DNA of 64,000 bases from NCBI RefSeq assembly GCF_004010195.1, contig NC_057719.1, positions 14,952,269 through 15,016,268 of the forward strand, in the 5' to 3' direction. Made by a program: the position numbers and the translations under genes. The notes under the pieces were generated by a model. The model was not told where the DNA came from and searched no databases. It saw only the letters and a program-made list of their open reading frames with translations. Of this stretch, positions 7,263 to 27,054 are shown piece after piece (within the stretch, counting starts at the first letter, position 1; each line of letters starts with the position of its first letter). This DNA is from Chiloscyllium plagiosum (lineage: Eukaryota).

Positions 7263-8829
7263 AATCTATTCAGGGTGGCAACACCAGCAGCTTCCCTGTC
7301 AATAGGGGGATATGAGTCCATTTGTGAGCCGCTACAGCTGTTTCCATCAGTGGAGGGAATGGTTCCAACTTTACCTCTGCAATATAAGAGGTATTGTGAG
7401 GTGCTCTTACTGGTTGTGATTGCAAAATTTAGGCAATTATAAAGATCAAAAAGCACAGCAACAGACCATTTATGAGACACACAAGCCTCCTCCTACCACT
7501 CTCCACCCAATCCGATCAGCATAACCTTTCTCTCGCACATTTTTCTGACTTTCCCTCAAATTCGCTTTCCCTTTCATTGCATACGAGAGGCTTTCTCAGG
7601 CATTTTAAGGCTGGAAATCTATGATGGTGTGTCTTTTTGTGAACAATATGCTTGGTAAGGAAAATAATGGCAAATGACCCATTGTGCTGCAGTGTGTTCA
7701 ATATCATTAGAACCAAAGAAATTTTGGTTAAACTTGTGTTCATTTGTTTAAGAAGTACAGGAATTAGAATTGGAAATGAAATAAATATAATTATATTTTG
7801 GAAGGTTTTACACAATTTGTGGAATGTTATGTGTATAAACTGAATGTTAATAAATAAATGTTATTATGATGTTTAAGTAATTACTTTGCTGATTTCTGTC
7901 AGTAGTAGTACATCTTAGGAAATAATATTTCTTCAACAGGTGGATATAACCTGTTGGCAAAGGCAGAAAGTGAGGAGGTTAATTAGTAAATAAATATTCG
8001 GGAGTCTTCCTGTCACAGAAACTAATTATTCAATGCCCACTTGTGTAATTGATGAACTTTTATATCACTTATACTCTGCAGTGGAAATATTCATTGTTAC
8101 CACTAATATTTTAAAAGTGTCCAAAGCACCAATGGAACTTAAAAGCTAGTTTTTTTTTGTACCAGTGAATGAATGCTGGGACCAAGTTTCCTAACCATGC
8201 TGCCAGGCTCAGTGATATGTGAGTTTGAAGATTAAATGAGTATTCAGTGAAAAGGTGACAGGTATCTATGATGAAATAACAAGACTGACTAAACCAAAAG
8301 CACATATTAAGTATAAGAATTTCCCTTATACAATTCCATTTCCACCCCAGCAGTTGTGCCCAATGGAGTTTTAAGATAGGGTAGAGTTATAATATGTGGA
8401 GATGATGAGACCAGCGAATGTACTGAGCTTATTTGAACATTTCCATTGTAAATATATATGTACCCACTTATGGTAGAAATTATCTTGGAAGACGGATACA
8501 TTTTAATTACACCATCCATCCAGTAAAGCGTTGAACTGGGACGAGGGCATAGTTAAAGATTGACAGACCTGCCAAATGTTGTGGTACCAACAAGTAGTAG
8601 CTTCTGGGTGGGTTACAGTGCTGAATCCTCTTTTCTTTTTTTTTAAAGATAATGTTAATAAGATTAGACAGCTCCTGGTGGAATCTGTAACTGAAATAAC
8701 TGCGCAGAGGCCAGTATCCTGTCACCAAGTCACCCTTCATTTGCTTGTGCACAGTACACTTGCTGTGCCTGTGACCAGCCAGCTCGGAGTCAATCTCCTG
8801 AACTGAGGAGATTCTAAACCCCCATTTAT

Positions 8830-11800
8830 AGTTTTATTTTCCTTTTTTCCCCTTTATTCTGATCTCCTGTTTATATTTTAATATCCAGCTTGGAGTCTAT
8901 CCCCTGGTTTTTGTTTTCCCTCTCCCCACAATACTGCCCACCAGTGGTAGTACTTAATACCACCTCCTCAGCACCCATGTTGTGTGTATGTGTAGGTGTA
9001 GGACACAGTGAAGAAACAAGTGCAGAAAACTTTATTGACATTCCACCACCAGGAAGAAAGGAAACCGAGTGGCCACTGACAGGCAGTGCCCTTCTCATCA
9101 AAGGGCAATGCCTGAGTGAACAAAAAAGTGAAGGGGAGGGGAGGGATTAAAGCAAAATAGAGTTGGAGGGGGAAATAAAACACTCGATTCCCTGCAGTGC
9201 CCACCTCTCACTGAACAGCTCGAGATACTGCATCCTCCTCCCTGTTTATATTTTTTATTCTCCTCCTGAAATAACTCCAAAGAGGTCGGTATCCTGTCAC
9301 CAAGTCACCCTTCATTTAGACATTGAAAGTCTTTGATACTGACCCAACTCCCTCAGATCCAGCTCTCAGAGTGTCAGGATGTCTGACATTCCTGTTATTT
9401 TTTGTTTTTTATCTACTTTATGTTTTGTGTAGGTGTCGGACACAGTGAAGAACAACAAGTTTGTAAAGCTTTATTCAATTTCCACCACCAGGAAAAAAGG
9501 AAACACCCGAGTGGCCAGTGACAAGCAGTGCCCTTCACATCAAAGGGCAACGCTGCGTGGTCAAACAGTGAAGGGGAGAGCAGGGATTAAATCCAAACAG
9601 AGTTGGCGGGGGAAATAAAACACTCCACTCCCTGCAGTGCCCACCTCTCCCTGAAAATCTCGAGGGTGTTGGTAGACACTGCATGCTCCTTCTCCAGGGA
9701 CACCCACATAACCGCGGAAGAGGGGCAGGCAGTCGGCTATAACGACCCCCTCCATGGCCCGCTTCCTGGACCTGTTTATGGCCAGCCTAGTCAGGCCCAG
9801 GAGCAGACCCACAAGGATATCCTGTGACCTCCCTTCCCCCCCCCCCCCCCTCCTTTGCACTCGGTGCTCAAAGATCAGGGGCATGGGGCTGACGTGCAGC
9901 CAAAAACATAAAAGAACATACCTTAAGGAAAACAAAAAGTGAGTGCAGATGCCCACACCTCATACATAACACGGTCCACGTACTCCACAGTGCGACAGAA
10001 CAAGCAGTTGGGCTGGGAGTCCGTGAATCACCGCAATCTGCGGTTGCAGGGGACCGCTACGTGCAGCACCCTCCACCCCAGATCCCCAAGAGAAAGGGGG
10101 AGTACTCCCACTAGAGAGCCCTCCACTGGGGATCTCCACCTCCCAGTGGCAAATGGGCACGCCAAAGCGTGTCCGGGCCGTGGATAAGGGAGAAGAGGTG
10201 GATGGTGTGCAGTAGCAATCAATAGAGTTTCATATCTCGAGTGGGGACAAAAATAAAATTTCAGAGGCAGCTCAGGTTGTGGGGCACAGGCTCCCATTGG
10301 AGATCCCCGTTTATATCTTTTCCCTTTTTCTTTCTTTTTTTTACCCCCACACTACCGCCAAACTGCAGTATAGCTAATTTTTTTCCCCCGCACCCATGCT
10401 GTGTGTGTGCAGATGAAAGACACAAGGTGCACAAATCTTTATTCAATTTCCACCACCAGGAAGAAAGGAAACATCAGGCTGGCCAGTGACAAGCCCTTCT
10501 CATCAAAGGGCAATGCTGCATGATCAAAAAAATGAAGGGGAGGTTAGAGGTTAAATCAAAATAGAGGGGGAAATAAAACATTGCACTCCCTGTGGTGCCC
10601 ACCTCTCACTGAACAGCTCGAGGGAGTTGGTAGGTACTGCGTGCTCCGCCCTGTGTATATTTTTTATTCTCCTCCTGAAATAACTCCAAAGAGACCGGTA
10701 TCCTGTCACCAAGTCACCCTTCATTTCGACATTGAAAGTCTTTGACACTGACCCAACTCCCTCAGATCCGGCTCTCAGAGTGTTAGGATGTCTGACATTC
10801 CTGTTTTTTATTTTTTTGTGTGAGTAGGTGTCGGACACAGTGAAGTAAACAAGTGCGTAAATCTTTATTCAATTTCCACCCCCAGGAAGAAAGGAAACAC
10901 CTGCGTGGCCATGGAGAAGCAGTGCCCATCACATCAAAGGGCAATGCTGCATGAGCAAACAGTGAAGGGGAGGGCAGGGATTAGATCAAAATAGAATTGG
11001 AAGGGGAAATAAAAACCCTCCACTCCCTACGGTGCCCACCTCTCCCTGAACAGCTCAAGGCAGTTGGTAGACACTGTGTGCTCCTCCTCTGTTTATCTTT
11101 TTAAAAATGTTTTTTCACACTGGTCGAGCCCCATCAAGGAGAATGTCTGATACTCCTCTTTTTTACCCCCACACTACTGCCTAACTGCGGTAGTGCTTAT
11201 TTTTTCCCCCAGCACCCATGTTGTGTGTGTGCAGGTGTGGGACACAGTGAGAGACACAAGGTGCACGAATCTTTATTCAAATTTCCACCACCAGGAAGAA
11301 AGGAAAACACCCGAGTGGCCAGTGACAAGCAGTGCCCTTCACAAAAGGCAATGCTGTGCGATCAAACAGTGAAAGGGAGGGCAGGGATTAAATCAAAATA
11401 GAGTTGGCAGGGGAAATAATGCACTCCACTCTCTGCGGCACCCACCTCTCCCTGAACAACTCCAGAGTGTGCGGCACCCACCTCTCCCTGAACAACTCCA
11501 GAGTGTTGGTAGGCACTCTGTGCTCCTCCCCTGTTTATTTGTTTTTTCTTTTTTTTTCTTTTCTTTTGTAGTGCTTATTTTTTCCCCAGCCCCCATGTTG
11601 CGCGTGTGCAGGTGTGAGACACAGTGAGAGACACAAGGTGCACGAATCTTTATTCAAATTTCCACTACCAGGAAGAAGGAAACATCCGAGTGGCCAGTGA
11701 TAAGCAGTGCCCTTCACAGCAAAGGGCAGCGCTGTGTGATCAAACAGTGAAAGGGAGGGTAGGGATTAAATCAAAATAGAGTTGGCAGGGGAAATGATGC

Positions 11801-12547
11801 ACTCCACTCCCTGCGGCACCCACCACTCCCTGAACAACTCCAGGATGTTGGTAGGCACTGTGTGCTCCTCCCCTGTTTATTTTTTTTTCTTCTTATCCCC
11901 ACACTACCGCCTAGTTACAGTAGTGCTTATTTTTTTCCCAGCACCCAAATCTCCTGTTTTTTTTCTTACTCCTTTTTTTTCTCTTATCTCCACACTACCA
12001 GTAATGCTTTTTTTTCCCAACACCCATGTTGTGTGTGTGCAGGTGTGAGACACAGTGAGAGACACAAAGTGCACAAATCTTTATTCAATTTCCACCACCA
12101 GGAAGATAGGAAAACACCCGAGTGGGCACTCCCCTGTTTATTTTTCTTTCTTTTTCTTTTTTTCTTTTTTTTTCTTTTTTTTTGTTTTAACCCCCTCACT
12201 ACCGCTAACTGCGGTGGTGCTTATTTTTTTCCCCAGCACCCATGGTGTGTGTGTGTGCAGGTGTGAGACACAGTGAGAGACACAAAGTGCACAAATCTTT
12301 ATTCAATTTCCACCACCAGGAAGATTGAAAAACACCCGAGTGGCCACTCCCCTGTTTATTTATTTTTTCTCTTTTAGATAGGAAAAGACCCAGGTGGCCA
12401 GTGACAAGCAGTGCCCTTCACATCAAAGGGCAAGTCCCTGTTTATTTTTTTTGAGACACAATGAGAGACACAAGGTGCACGAATCTTTATTCAATTTCCA
12501 CCACGAGGAAGATAGGAAAACACCCGAGTGGCCACTCCCCTGTTTAT
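8830..12547 (-). mobile_element. Head-to-tail stack of ~11-13 5'-truncated Tx1-like LINE 3' ends
   Basis: On + each unit starts with a T-rich tract and ends at a cc(c)tgtttat-like junction (near 8875, 9249, 10314, 10658, 11096, 11538, 11880, 11958, 12141, 12359, 12445, 12547). Units share a 3' UTR, and the longer ones share the ORF2 end ..RERWAPQGV.C.ISPS.LI*. Confidence 0.88.
9588..10305 (-). pseudogene. Frameshifted Tx1-like ORF2 C-terminus (zf-RVT region) in the longest stack unit
   Basis: GVLPLSLGDLGWRVLHVAVPCNRRLR, NCLFCRTVEYVDR, DILVGLLLGLTRLAINRSRKRAMEGVVIADCLPLFRGYV. Confidence 0.8.
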
Positions 12548-13424
12548 TTTAGTTAGCCAGAGCTTCCTGATTGGACCAGGTTAACAACCTCAATCAAGGA
12601 TGCCATAGTCAATAAGATCCACCAATCACTACAGTTGCAAATCAGTAATCAATCAGCTATTGTTGAGTTTAAAAAATGAAACATTCAGACCTGACCAGTA
12701 AGGATTAATCATTAAGGGTTAATTGGATATGACAATGACCATTTGAAATAAAGGGGAAACGTACATGAACAACAAACCCAATGTGAAACATAGCCCTTTT
12801 TGACTTGGGGATGGGGAGTGTGATTCTGCCTGACCTTAAGGGGCAGTGGGAACTGTCTGCTTCTGCAGTTTACATGGGGCTGCCTGGACTTATTTCTCCA
12901 CACATATTTGAGGGCTGGAGAAGTACTGAAGTTATGACAAAATGGGGATTCAGCACATAACCTGAGAGACAAAGTAGTATTAATAGCAGGGACTTTACCC
13001 TGCTCATTGGACTTCAGACCATCAGGCTGGGGTTGATGTGACAGGTGCTGTGGACTCTGAGATTGAGCTCTGAATACCATTGTCACCAAAATCCCCAATG
13101 GATAAAATGGGAGACTCATTTGTTTATCGCAGTTGTTCAACTTGGTAAGTTTAGAATATAGATGTATATTATAACCCAACAATTCACATATGTATTATAA
13201 CCCAACAAATTAGCCATATATTGAAGTTCACATGTTTTTGTCTAGTTATTTTGATCAGACCTTAAAGAACTTGTTAGATACTTTCAGTCTAACAGTAGAA
13301 ACAGTCAACAGCATCTTACGGAACTTATCAAAATCAAATCATGATACCATTATCTGGAGTGATAATTAGTGTTGCTAGTGTTGAAAAGCCTCTACTGTCC
13401 TAGTGGACTTCCTTCCCTATGACC

Positions 13425-14399: not shown

Positions 14400-14750
14400 C
14401 CTACTAGTCTCTGAAGGTTTATATCGGGCTGGTGAGCACTGCATGCTCTATCTCCAAGGACACCCGAGTGTGGATGTTACCACAAAGCAAGGGCAGACAG
14501 TCAGGCATAATGACCCCATGCACAGCGCCCTCCCCCCCCCGCTAGTTAATGGTCACTTTGGCCAGGCCTATGAACAGAACCACAAAGAGGCTTTCTGATT
14601 TGCTCCCCCCCCCCGCCCCCCAACAACTACACTCCCCGTACAAGGTGCGGTTTCCACTGATTAGAGGCATGGGGATGAACTCCAGCCAAAAATGTAAAAG
14701 CTGCCCTCATAAGAAACTAAACAAGGGCTACGCACAAACACGTTCAAAAT
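14400..14750 (-). mobile_element. Divergent Tx1-like ORF2 C-terminal fragment
   Basis: Aligns by eye to 9660-9940 (cactgcatgctc..tccaaggacacc..ggccaggcc..ggcatgggg..cagccaaaa). Confidence 0.65.
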
Positions 14751-16537: not shown

Positions 16538-18152
16538 TGTGGTGGAAAACACAGGAGACAGATGCTTCAAAGGCAGAGGAAACTCGGATTTTCTTAAAGC
16601 AAGCAAAATGTGTACAATAACTGGAAAAGAAAATGAATATTTTTTTTAAAAACCCAATCTTATGGATCAAGCAAAGTGAGACTTATCTGACACAGCCACC
16701 TAGCTACCCAGTTAACCCTTACAACCCTGACTTGGTAGTGTGGGTTTAAAATTACAGAGAGCTGTTAATTATTGGGTGAGAGGGGAAAGGGGAGAATGAG
16801 AGAGAAAATGCTAATCCTGGGGTCTTGTCCAGGGTGCCCTGCACCGTTAGCCCACCCTTCCTACTCTATCCAACTGAGCTGGGACAGAGGGCCTCAATGA
16901 CCTTATGCTCACCCCTGAAGTGGCTTCTGTCAGCTCGGACGGTGGTGGGTTTCACTGACACTGCCCAAGTCGGTATCTCAGCTCCCCAGTCGCTTCCCGT
17001 CTGTATGTGGAGGTTTGCGATTGAAAAGATCGTTTATTCTCATTCTTTTCCTGAGTCTATCAATGGTTACAGTCCGACTCACTGCGACTGGCTGTGTTTG
17101 ATTCTCTCCACTCTGGCCAAACCTCTCGCTGAATCCAACCTCCCTTCGAGATTTGGGCTCCCCAGTTATACTGACTGCCGGTTCTCCATTTCTCCTGCCA
17201 AATCTGGGTTTGATTACTGAGCTTAAGAGTGTGATGCTGAAAAAGCACAGCCAGTCAGGCAGCATCCAAGGAGCAGGAAAATCGACGTTTCGAGCCAAAG
17301 CTGATTGCTGAGCTGTTGTTCCTCCTCTCCAGGGTTAAATGAGCCTCCTGATTATTAGATGAGGTGTAAATAGTTCTTTAGTTAAAGTGAATGACAGTTC
17401 TGAATGTCCAGTATTTCTCTTTGATGGATGTAGGTTAAAGCTTTCCTAATAGTGTAGGGCCAGGTTTTCAATGTAAAACAATGGTGTGAAATGTTCAGTA
17501 TCTCTGTTTAAAAGTTGAATGGCTTTGTATGTTTTTGTTGGCTCCAGAATGTCTCAGTTGTTTCCTCTGCAGGCTGGTGTTCCTTGTCTTCAGCTGAGGT
17601 GTTTGTGGGGGTCTTCGTTTAGCTTTACAATCTAAGGCTGTGTTCAGACAGCTGCCCCTAGGCTTGCATATTGCATGCTAAACCCCTGTTCAGACAGCTG
17701 CCCCTAGGCTTGCATATTGCATGCTAATCCCCTGTTCAGACAGCTGCCCCTAGGCTTGCATATTGCATGCTAAACTCCTGTTCAGACACCTGCCCCTAGG
17801 CTTGCATATTGCATGCTAATCCCCTGTTCAGACAGCTGCCCCTAGGCTTGCATATTGCATGATAATCCCCTGTTCAGACACCTGCCCCTAGGCTTGCATA
17901 TTGCATGCTAATCCCATGTTCGGACAGCTGCCCCTAGGCTTGCATATTGCATGCTAAACCCCTGTTCAGACAGCTGCCCCTCAGCTTGCATATTGCATGC
18001 TAAACCCCTGTTCGGACAGCTACCCCTAGGCAGCTCTTTCACCCAGAGAACTCAGTGACTCTCAGTTCAAATGTGAATTCCACAAACTCATGTCCCAAGT
18101 TCAGAGGGTTTTAGTCCAGGGTATCTGATGGGGATTTTTGCCCCACCTTACA
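16538..18152 (-). mobile_element. Putative solo LTR containing a VNTR and a PLE fragment (17224-17301)
   Basis: TG...CA ends with near-matching 4-bp flanks (gtgg/gggg). The internal PLE piece has TSD tgatt(a/g)ctgagct at 17211-17223 and 17302-17314. Confidence 0.4.
17641..18030. repeat. 46-bp minisatellite, ~8.5 copies
   Basis: Unit tgttcagacagctgcccctaggcttgcatattgcatgctaa(a/t)cccc starts at 17641, 17687, 17733, 17779, 17825, 17871, 17917, 17963 and 18009 (partial). Confidence 0.97.
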
Positions 18153-26133: not shown

Positions 26134-26361
26134 CATAACAATTGTGACGAAGTCATCCAGGCAGACCACACAGAATATGTGTTCCCTGATTGGGGCTGTT
26201 AACCGGGCCCAATCAGGGAACCCTGGCTGACAGGTAAAAATGGGAGTATCAGAGATACTGACACTGTGAAAGCTGACTCGGAATGAAACATTACTGAGGT
26301 CAAGGACTGTAAATAAAGGGTGACTTGGTGACAGGATACTGGCTTCCATGGAGTTATTTCA
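26134..26361 (+). mobile_element. 3' LTR of the Gypsy element, with no insertion at the TATA-like site
   Basis: Follows the PPT; ccaatc boxes, aataaa, ends gagttatttca. Confidence 0.82.
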
Positions 26362-27054
26362 TATTGGTCATCCTAGTTGCCCTAGTTTTATACTTACTAC
26401 ATGGAAGCAGTAACACCTGTAACAGTCTATCATCATAAGTTGAATGTGTAGCAAGAAGGTTATGTGGCTAGCTTACTATGAAAAAACTTTTTTAATTTGG
26501 CCAAAATTGGGCAGGTATGTAGTTCAAATCACCTCAAAGTTTGGCCTACCAGATGTCTCATTAATGTCCCATACATGAGGTTTTAATCTTTTTTTTATTG
26601 GGTGTCATTTTAAGAACTCCTGTCTGAAACCATCAAAGTGCTTCATTAAATATAGAGCTAAAACTTCCTGTTCATTTATTTATTAATTAGTTATACGATT
26701 GACGATTGACTTGTCATTGCCTGTTTAGGTCTTTGAGTGTTTCATGTGATAATTTGGTGATTGGACAGATGACAAAATCACAGCATCTTAACCCAGGCAT
26801 CTGAGAACTGAGTGAACAGAGAAACCAACAGTTTCATTCTGATGGAGAACAACAGCCCACAGACTGAGAAATAGTGTAATTTTACAGTCGGTGGATTCAA
26901 TCCCAAGTTAGGAAGAGAAGTTAAGGAAAGAAAGGCTGGAGTAAAAGACTAAGAGAAGGAAGATTAAGGTCTTGATCTTCCAGTTTTTTTGACTAAGTGT
27001 ATGTCAGGTAGGGTTTGTTAAAGGGGTTCTCACCACTGGAACCATTCTTATAAA

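Follow-up and report, generated by a model that had tools for sequence, protein, structure and literature searches.

A Tx1-clade LINE with an apparent preference for the TATA box of a short LTR in the genome of Chiloscyllium plagiosum

Introduction

Several families in the Tx1 clade of long interspersed nuclear elements (LINEs) are target-specific. According to the main text of Kojima (2015, Genome Biol Evol 7:1702, PMC4494074), Tx1 inserts into the piggyBac-type transposon Tx1D, Keno into U2 genes, Kibi and Koshi into microsatellites, and Tx1-Mar into a Mariner element, while two crocodilian families, Tx1-8_Crp and Tx1-4_AMi, prefer long terminal repeat (LTR) retrotransposons. In the same account, tandem insertions around a target duplication are read as sequential insertion, and partner short interspersed nuclear elements (SINEs) have the same target as the LINE. 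Here we describe a 64,000-nt stretch of the Chiloscyllium plagiosum genome (assembly GCF_004010195.1, contig NC_057719.1, positions 14,952,269 to 15,016,268 of the forward strand; hereafter the window), in which a short LTR is split near its TATA box by a head-to-tail array of Tx1-like LINE units, together with copies of the same LINE and the same LTR from other loci (L001 and so on). Coordinates refer to the window unless stated otherwise.

The closest described relatives in behavior are Tx1-8_Crp and Tx1-4_AMi, which share with the present LINE a preference for LTR retrotransposons and tandem (partner SINE) insertions around a target duplication (PMC4494074). They differ in host genome, and the main text of that article gives no position inside the LTR element; the comparison is by description and not by sequence. 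In light of these families, the suggestion in the initial annotation of the window that this kind of target might be undescribed was too strong. Tx1L of Xenopus laevis (UniProt, P0030) is close in protein sequence (ORF2 colinear over residues 1-1292, 46% reverse transcriptase identity) and likewise homes to a fixed site in another transposon (PMC4494074), but its target is the piggyBac-type DNA transposon Tx1D, whereas the present LINE appears to target an LTR TATA box. Keno, Kibi, Koshi and Tx1-Mar with its partner SINEU-3 are also site-specific LINEs with an apurinic/apyrimidinic endonuclease (APE)-type enzyme that form tandem stacks, and SINEU-3 is a non-autonomous RNA carried to the target of a LINE, as may be the case for one SINE and one ferritin retrocopy here. 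Their targets (U2 snRNA genes, microsatellites and Mariner) are different, however, and the trans-mobilized partners in the present system are single examples. The R1 and R2 elements of rDNA similarly use one multicopy target repeatedly (PMC4494074). Unlike the present LINE, they belong to other clades (R2 has a restriction-like endonuclease) and target an RNA gene. R1 and R2 are co-transcribed with their target, and their precise 5' junctions are thought to be aided by homology to the target or to upstream sequence; a role for homology in the shark array is something that we infer.

Our literature search retrieved no report in which a LINE, of the Tx1 clade or any other, targets the TATA box of an LTR (Repbase Reports and most subscription journals lie outside its coverage), and nothing relevant on Tx1 in sharks by title or abstract. 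On Tx1 families that favor LTR retrotransposons, it retrieved Kojima (2015) alone. The present LINE is a new family with a new target site among target-specific Tx1 LINEs, and thus a clear new example and not a new principle. What it adds to the known picture is the exact TATA-box position combined with high occupancy of the sampled LTRs, 5' junctions that are array-specific and inherited, and the delivery of foreign polyadenylated RNAs to the site.

Results and Discussion

Insertion sites of the LINE across the genome

A search of the 3.56-Gb assembly with a 331-nt unit of the LINE yielded more than 3,200 candidates (3204), of which the best 40 were 91-95% identical; the LTR search yielded 1349. 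Two samples were drawn from the 40 best-scored candidates in each case, and both are biased to well-preserved copies. The first comprised 20 of 46 non-self LINE rows (the top 19 and one picked for its tandem neighbor), each with 1 kb of flank. In 14 of the 20 (L003-L009, L011, L012, L014 and L017-L020), the LINE lies at the TATA site of the LTR and in LTR orientation, with ...CCAATCAGGGAGCCCTGGCTGACAGATATAAACAGGAGTGT directly upstream of the LINE and the LTR continuing after the tail from (A)AACAGGAGTGTCAGAG... Three others (L001, L002 and L010) occupy TATA-like sequences in other CCAAT-bearing DNA, 25-30 nt after the CCAAT motif, and the remaining three (L013, L015 and L016) are elsewhere, with ordinary 13-16-nt duplications and no motif at the LINE 5' end. 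Target duplications are 11-16 nt long, are legible in single insertions, and match each LTR's own variant of the motif (AACAGGAGTGT, ACACAGGAGAT, AACAGTAACATC and others). At least two LTR subfamilies are used. The 14 of 20 copies in one sequence exceed the 20% of flanks above which Kojima (2015) regards a family as target-specific, and they answer the check set beforehand in the initial annotation, namely that flanks should be non-random.

The second sample, 20 of 39 non-self LTR matches, was selected by similarity to the LTR U3 region alone, and occupancy therefore had no influence on the choice. Six of these LTRs are empty and carry the motif (L050, L056, L057, L058, L066 and L068), whereas nine contain Tx1 sequence beginning at the site; seven of the nine were confirmed by BLAST, all on the plus strand, and the other two (L051 and L061) are 35-40-nt 3' ends recognized by eye. 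The rest hold a SINE (L067), a ferritin retrocopy with a Tx1 unit, another repeat (two cases) or an ambiguous sequence (L059). Because empty LTRs carry the motif and the non-LTR copies L013, L015 and L016 lack it, the motif belongs to the LTR and not to the LINE, as had been assumed from the window.

The affinity to Tx1, the exact common position and orientation, the target duplications, the empty sites and the unrelatedness of array neighbors (see below) are observed directly. Taken together, they very probably reflect an APE-type, poly(A)-tailed Tx1 LINE that strongly prefers the TATA box and about 12 nt behind it in a short LTR of a Ty3/Gypsy-like family, the preferred site being ATATAAAC AGGAG(A/T)(T/G)T.

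Homing could also be real while the site is set by promoter-bound proteins or bent TATA DNA (TBP, CCAAT-binding factor) and not by an endonuclease reading the sequence, and half of the six copies outside the LTR family, those behind CCAAT motifs at TATA-like sequences, would fit such an explanation. Yet insertion points are precise to the nucleotide, and the duplicated motif is conserved in two LTR subfamilies that differ downstream. A related, uninterrupted LTR in the window (Table 1) retains its CCAAT boxes; its site is diverged (GGTAAAAATGGGAGTATCAGAG) and empty, as noted in the initial annotation, although this is a single case and a weak one. The Tx1L endonuclease is also reported to be target-specific (Christensen et al. 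2000), which would count against placement by promoter proteins. We consider such placement improbable and favor recognition by the LINE endonuclease itself, which would have to read the site directly.

Identity of the LINE

Longer copies were reached by stepping upstream via natural copies; long elements were found, but these are decayed. An open piece of L042 matches RVT_1 (E 6.7e-23). Its reverse transcriptase part aligns with the Xenopus laevis 'Transposon TX1 149 kDa protein' over 389 aa at 46% identity (299 bits); with human L1 ORF2p chains and R2 proteins, this query reaches 65.7 bits and at most 52 bits, respectively. A tblastn search with Xenopus Tx1 ORF2 (1308 residues) was colinear over residues 1-1292 in L042 and 9-1292 in L045, including the N-terminal APE-type endonuclease part (residues 1-365 and 9-468, respectively). 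Profile matches in decayed copies fall below their cut-offs, both for Pfam Exo_endo_phos in L045 (20.1 bits; cut-off 24.5) and for the C-terminal zinc motif zf-RVT (24.2 and 22.9 bits; cut-off 27.5). The ORF1 region encodes a CCHC knuckle. Based on best hits and colinearity, the predicted membership of the LINE in the Tx1 clade is well supported, in agreement with the assignment made from the window sequence. In long copies, the ORF1 region is preceded by GC-rich tandem repeats that extend over about 1.3 kb (L045, oriented positions ~100-1450).

The split LTR and its array

In the window, one short LTR on the minus strand (8692-12633) is divided into two halves, with the break just 3' of its CCAAT/TATA region. 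Both halves are matched by three uninterrupted LTRs from other loci: L056, L058 and L066 match 12536-12614 in the U3 half, and L058 and L066 match 8688-8830 in the R-U5 half. Genome matches to the host U3 stretch span query positions 85-175, equivalent to 12546-12636. On the minus strand, the U3 region shows CCAAT boxes followed by AAATAAACAGGGG. The site had initially been called TATA-like; its position was right, but intact LTRs have a canonical TATA box there (...CCAATCAGGGAGCCCTGGCTGACAGATATAAACAGGAGATTCAGAG...). In empty LTRs, this box is 27 nt behind a CCAAT box and AATAAA occurs near the LTR 3' end, giving the putative promoter layout of CCAAT, TATA, R and AATAAA that can be read in L056, L057, L058 and L066. 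Downstream of the LTR in L004/L070, we detected a weak RVT_1 match (20.1 bits) and RT_RNaseH (PF17917, 25.9 bits; cut-off 24.8), with no integrase or gag family among the profile matches in that region. A 91-aa gag-like piece matched no Pfam family and no homologue, and no Gypsy assignment is drawn from it.

The sequence TAAACAGGRG (≤1 mismatch) recurs 10 times in the array, consistent with the earlier observation that the target is repeated at nearly every junction, and inspection by eye adds more degenerate ones near 10300-10313, 10650-10660 and 8815-8830. Over both strands of the window, there are 23 matches against 10.5 expected, a number reached in none of 100 shuffles. Separately, TGAACAGGGG occurs every 46 nt at 17683-17968 on the minus strand, which is a tandem repeat with a mere resemblance to the target motif.

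Between the LTR halves (8965-12534) are 11 head-to-tail LINE units, all on the minus strand, 5'-truncated and A-tailed, with lengths of 54 to about 874 bp (Table 1); the initial annotation had described about 11-13 units of about 50-1050 bp in the same orientation. The reference for unit positions (hereafter ref) is L021/L004, a natural copy of the LINE at another locus, 840 nt in length. Units begin at ref 51, 504-509, 534, 651, 678 and 780, and end at ref 702 to 840 with an A-rich tail after each; that of U3 includes a long T/C-rich stretch (A-rich on the minus strand) at 12137-12188, and U7 contains an internal 36-nt tandem duplication (11434-11506). Two age classes are evident, in that U1-U7 are mostly 88-96% identical to the reference (76% for U5) and U8-U11 are 78-82% identical and have variants of their own in common. 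The description of the array as composed of LINE units holds for these 11 Tx1 units, but the array also includes two foreign LTR blocks and tiny A-rich or target-only pieces near 8831-8964.

The two foreign blocks have the same make-up, and their 16-nt tag, searched as a 22-nt sequence, has two sites in the whole genome, both in this array and one of them at 9253-9274. Two insertions are no likelier an origin than one retrotransposition, with 3' transduction, and a later local duplication. The genome-wide search with the 22-nt tag identified no progenitor elsewhere that would support 3' transduction from another locus.

Table 1. Features of the split LTR, its array and a related LTR in the window
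Feature	Position	Strand	Remarks
Host LTR 5' part (U3 region, subfamily A)	12546-12640	-	CCAAT boxes; stops at TATA box; 5' boundary approximate
Unit U1, Tx1 3' fragment	12452-12534	-	ref 678-760, 96%
Unit U2, Tx1 fragment	12376-12429	-	ref 651-702, 89%
Unit U3, Tx1 3' end	12178-12346	-	ref 678-840, 88%
Unit U4, Tx1 fragment	12001-12128	-	ref 678-807, 92%
Unit U5, Tx1 extreme 3' end, 63 nt	11885-11947	-	ref 780-840, 76%
Unit U6, Tx1 3' end	11568-11869	-	ref 508-807, 89%
Unit U7, Tx1 3' end	11163-11527	-	ref 508-832, 94%
Unit U8, older-subfamily Tx1 fragment	10814-11089	-	ref 504-777, 82%
Foreign block copy 1 (target motif, subfamily B LTR 3' part, tag ending in A-run)	10632-10817	-	
Unit U9, old Tx1 3' end	10335-10647	-	ref 509-840, 78%
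Unit U10, longest	9426-about 10299	-	82%; extended by tblastn; Tx1 ORF2 residues 1063-1291 and 3' untranslated region
Foreign block copy 2 (same make-up as copy 1)	9223-9408	-	92% identical to copy 1
Unit U11, old Tx1 fragment	8965-9224	-	ref 534-792, 82%
U11 tail, short LTR fragment and A-rich or target-only micro-units	8831-8964	-	by eye
Host LTR 3' part (R-U5)	8692-8830	-	last target copy to LTR end, ...TTATTTCA
Target motif TAAACAGGRG (≤1 mismatch), 10 copies	span 8864-12546	-	motif scan
Target motif copies 1-5	12537-12546, 12435-12444, 12349-12358, 12131-12140, 11951-11960	-	motif scan
Target motif copies 6-10	11870-11879, 11528-11537, 11086-11095, 9239-9248, 8864-8873	-	motif scan
Related LTR, uninterrupted, diverged target site GGTAAAAATGGGAGTATCAGAG	26173-26362	+	alignment

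Separate insertion versus duplication

To compare units within and between arrays, we used 64 units covering ref 535-750. Mean identity was 0.868 within arrays (41 pairs) and 0.891 between arrays (1975 pairs), and when array labels were shuffled, the within-array mean was as high as the observed one in 1951 of 2000 runs. Since identity within arrays is not above that between arrays, array neighbors are not recent copies of each other, and they are also unlike in their 3' ends and tails. A nearest-neighbor test, in which 2 of 36 units had their nearest neighbor in their own array, was dropped in favor of these label-shuffled means; it is biased because outside candidates far outnumber those of the same array. 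Judging from their sequences, most units are separate insertions. An age gradient with older units downstream was seen in the window, L006, L011 and L019, but was reversed in L005 and mixed elsewhere, and we make no claim from it.

The array might instead be a young satellite, arising from one or a few insertions followed by unequal crossing-over or slippage between motifs and A-tracts. Such amplification would account for runs of units in one array with exactly one 5' junction, and for the composite block of LINE end, subfamily B LTR part and tag that occurs twice here and nowhere else in the genome. On the other hand, 3' ends, tail lengths and tail compositions vary among the units of a single run, the window array contains two age classes and at least six truncation points, and the identity comparison above shows no excess within arrays. 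Amplification in place also offers no account of the same site being used, with different truncation points, in 14 of 20 LINE copies and nine of 20 LTRs elsewhere. We therefore regard it as very improbable.

A still less probable explanation is that the LTR element picked up a piece of the LINE on one occasion and carried it along as the LTR family amplified, with no target preference on the part of the LINE. It would explain the same position and orientation in many LTR copies and the recurrence of one junction (ref 479) in L006, L007 and L053. However, 5' truncation points vary widely between LTR copies, each insert lies between target duplications, six of 20 LTRs are empty, and the ref 479 truncation is also present at a non-LTR site (L015); moreover, the AATAAA of an insert upstream of R should shorten the LTR genomic RNA. 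A single capture spread by the LTR element can be excluded for practical purposes, because truncation points vary and the motif tracks each LTR's own variant.

Equally far-fetched is an assembly artefact, that is, collapse or mis-joining of a high-copy repeat, notwithstanding the very high copy number of the sequence, the fragmented assembly (101,977 contigs) and the lack of a single public-run contig across the array, given that single-copy-depth contigs, from other runs and a related species as well, cover both flank junctions and several internal ones, and that similar arrays are present at at least nine of 20 other loci. These contigs came from public runs of the same species (two runs, one of them possibly the assembly's own sample) and of a related species (two runs), and were aligned to 8400-12900, where many apparent joints are other copies of the repeat. 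They cover both flank-LTR junctions (8400-8719 and 12566-12900, with a ~3% difference in the related species) and the internal pieces 8714-9012, 10508-10704 (which includes the tag unique to the array) and 11765-11980. Because contigs of the related species cover junctions, the array, or at least its older part, must have existed before the two species diverged and did not arise from this assembly. Accordingly, the two outcomes that would have undermined the initial annotation, misassembly and simple tandem duplication, are both contradicted by junction contigs, by differences in 3' ends, tails and ages, and by the identity comparison.

Several observations nevertheless weigh against repeated, separate insertion by a LINE specific for the TATA site. 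Identical 5' junctions recur in runs at L019 (ref 519, four units), L005 (ref 528, three units) and L020 (ref 523, four units), as well as in the window array (ref 678 and 504-509), and plain independent insertion does not predict such runs. Hence, the proposal that the units are repeated separate insertions stands for most of them, but fully independent insertions do not explain the shared junctions. Across copies, 3' ends range from ref 240 to 840 with an A-rich tail after each, which is unusually variable for a LINE and not fully explained. Specificity is not absolute (six of 20 copies are outside the LTR family), and best-scored samples with the bias described above do not give the genome-wide fraction of copies at the LTR site. 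Finally, the foreign block may have spread by local duplication with no second insertion, and no contig of the public runs aligned to 8400-12900 spans the full array.

Proposed mechanism

The 11-16-nt target duplications start within the A-run of TATAAAC, which fits a bottom-strand nick and a top-strand cut 11-16 nt downstream. The LINE endonuclease would nick the bottom strand in the T-run opposite TATAAA, in an L1-like manner and at a position suggested by the duplications, and the poly(A) tail of the RNA would then anneal at the nick for target-primed reverse transcription. The subsequent cut in the top strand would leave AAACAGGAG.. on both sides of the insert. Since the A-tail and the duplicated AAACAGG... 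would together restore an A-rich stretch followed by the motif, occupied LTRs would remain targets with at least two landing sites each, and head-to-tail arrays could grow by reuse of the rebuilt sites.

The runs of identical 5' junctions may be best explained by homology between new and resident units. If a new insertion used the copy of the site that immediately precedes a resident unit, it would leave a cut top strand that ends in or next to the resident 5' end, and this end could pair with the homologous new Tx1 cDNA. The resident junction would thereby be re-created in units that are not copies of one another, and same-junction units are predicted to be contiguous and upstream of their founder. 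Microhomology as the cause of the identical junctions was ruled out for L005, L019 and L020 (0-2 shared bases), although it may contribute in the window array, where GGAG is found at ref 508.

Other sequences at the LTR site and in the window

Sequences other than the Tx1 LINE were also found at the LTR site. At L054 and L071 (adjacent, on one contig), the LTR TATA site is occupied by a ferritin coding sequence without introns and with a truncated 5' end (Pfam Ferritin, E 6.4e-08). Behind it come a short A-run, the target motif, a Tx1 unit and the remainder of the LTR. The insert has the appearance of a retrocopy of a cellular mRNA that was brought to the LINE target. In L067, a tRNA-like SINE of ~110 nt with a short A-rich tail lies at the LTR site between copies of the duplicated motif ATCTAAACAGG(A/G)GAT, and related SINE copies are found near the LINE loci L032 and L033. 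A GC-rich, internally repetitive repeat starts exactly at the LTR target site in L052 and L069 and also adjoins Tx1 copies in L025, L026, L040 and L045; it could be a further passenger or the 5' region of another LINE. Together with the variable 3' ends, the occurrence of a SINE and a ferritin retrocopy at one point suggests, from few cases, that a poly(A) tail may be the main requirement for a template and that the site may be chosen by the protein.

Among the LINE copies themselves, the 5' truncation point ref 479 (TTACGTTAGGG...) recurs at three LTR sites (L006, L007 and L053) and at the non-LTR site L015, which may point to a reverse transcriptase stop or to an RNA 5' end that is used preferentially. 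Tiny units in L003, L008, L017, L019, L020 and the window (8831-8964) consist solely of an A-tract and the 10-60 nt of LTR sequence that immediately follow the site. They could be insertions that were aborted and have long target duplications, or else read-through copies with heavy truncation. Outside the array, a 183-nt stretch on the minus strand (14430-14612) matches the reference LINE copy in its ORF2 3' region at 69% identity and probably represents an older or different Tx1-like family.

Implications

One tentative and rather doubtful extension is that homing to the TATA box amounts to promoter capture, with copies placed ~15 nt behind a CCAAT/TATA RNA polymerase II promoter, where they would be transcribed while the LTR is disarmed, and the LTR family would act as a landing pad for retrocopies. 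If so, even 5'-truncated copies would be transcribed from the LTR promoter, and the same machinery would bring other polyadenylated RNAs (SINE, ferritin mRNA) to the site.

For genome annotation, arrays such as this one should be treated as insertions nested in one another; they do not constitute a new satellite or composite repeat. More broadly, the system is a clear instance, with high occupancy, of a Tx1 LINE of vertebrate type directed at the core promoter of another retrotransposon, with about half of the sampled LTRs hit at one nucleotide position. It offers natural material for studying how an APE-type endonuclease reads a 15-20-bp site, which bears on programmable RNA-templated insertion, how 5' junctions form where the target already has a homologous insert, and how one transposon family may be silenced or exploited by another.

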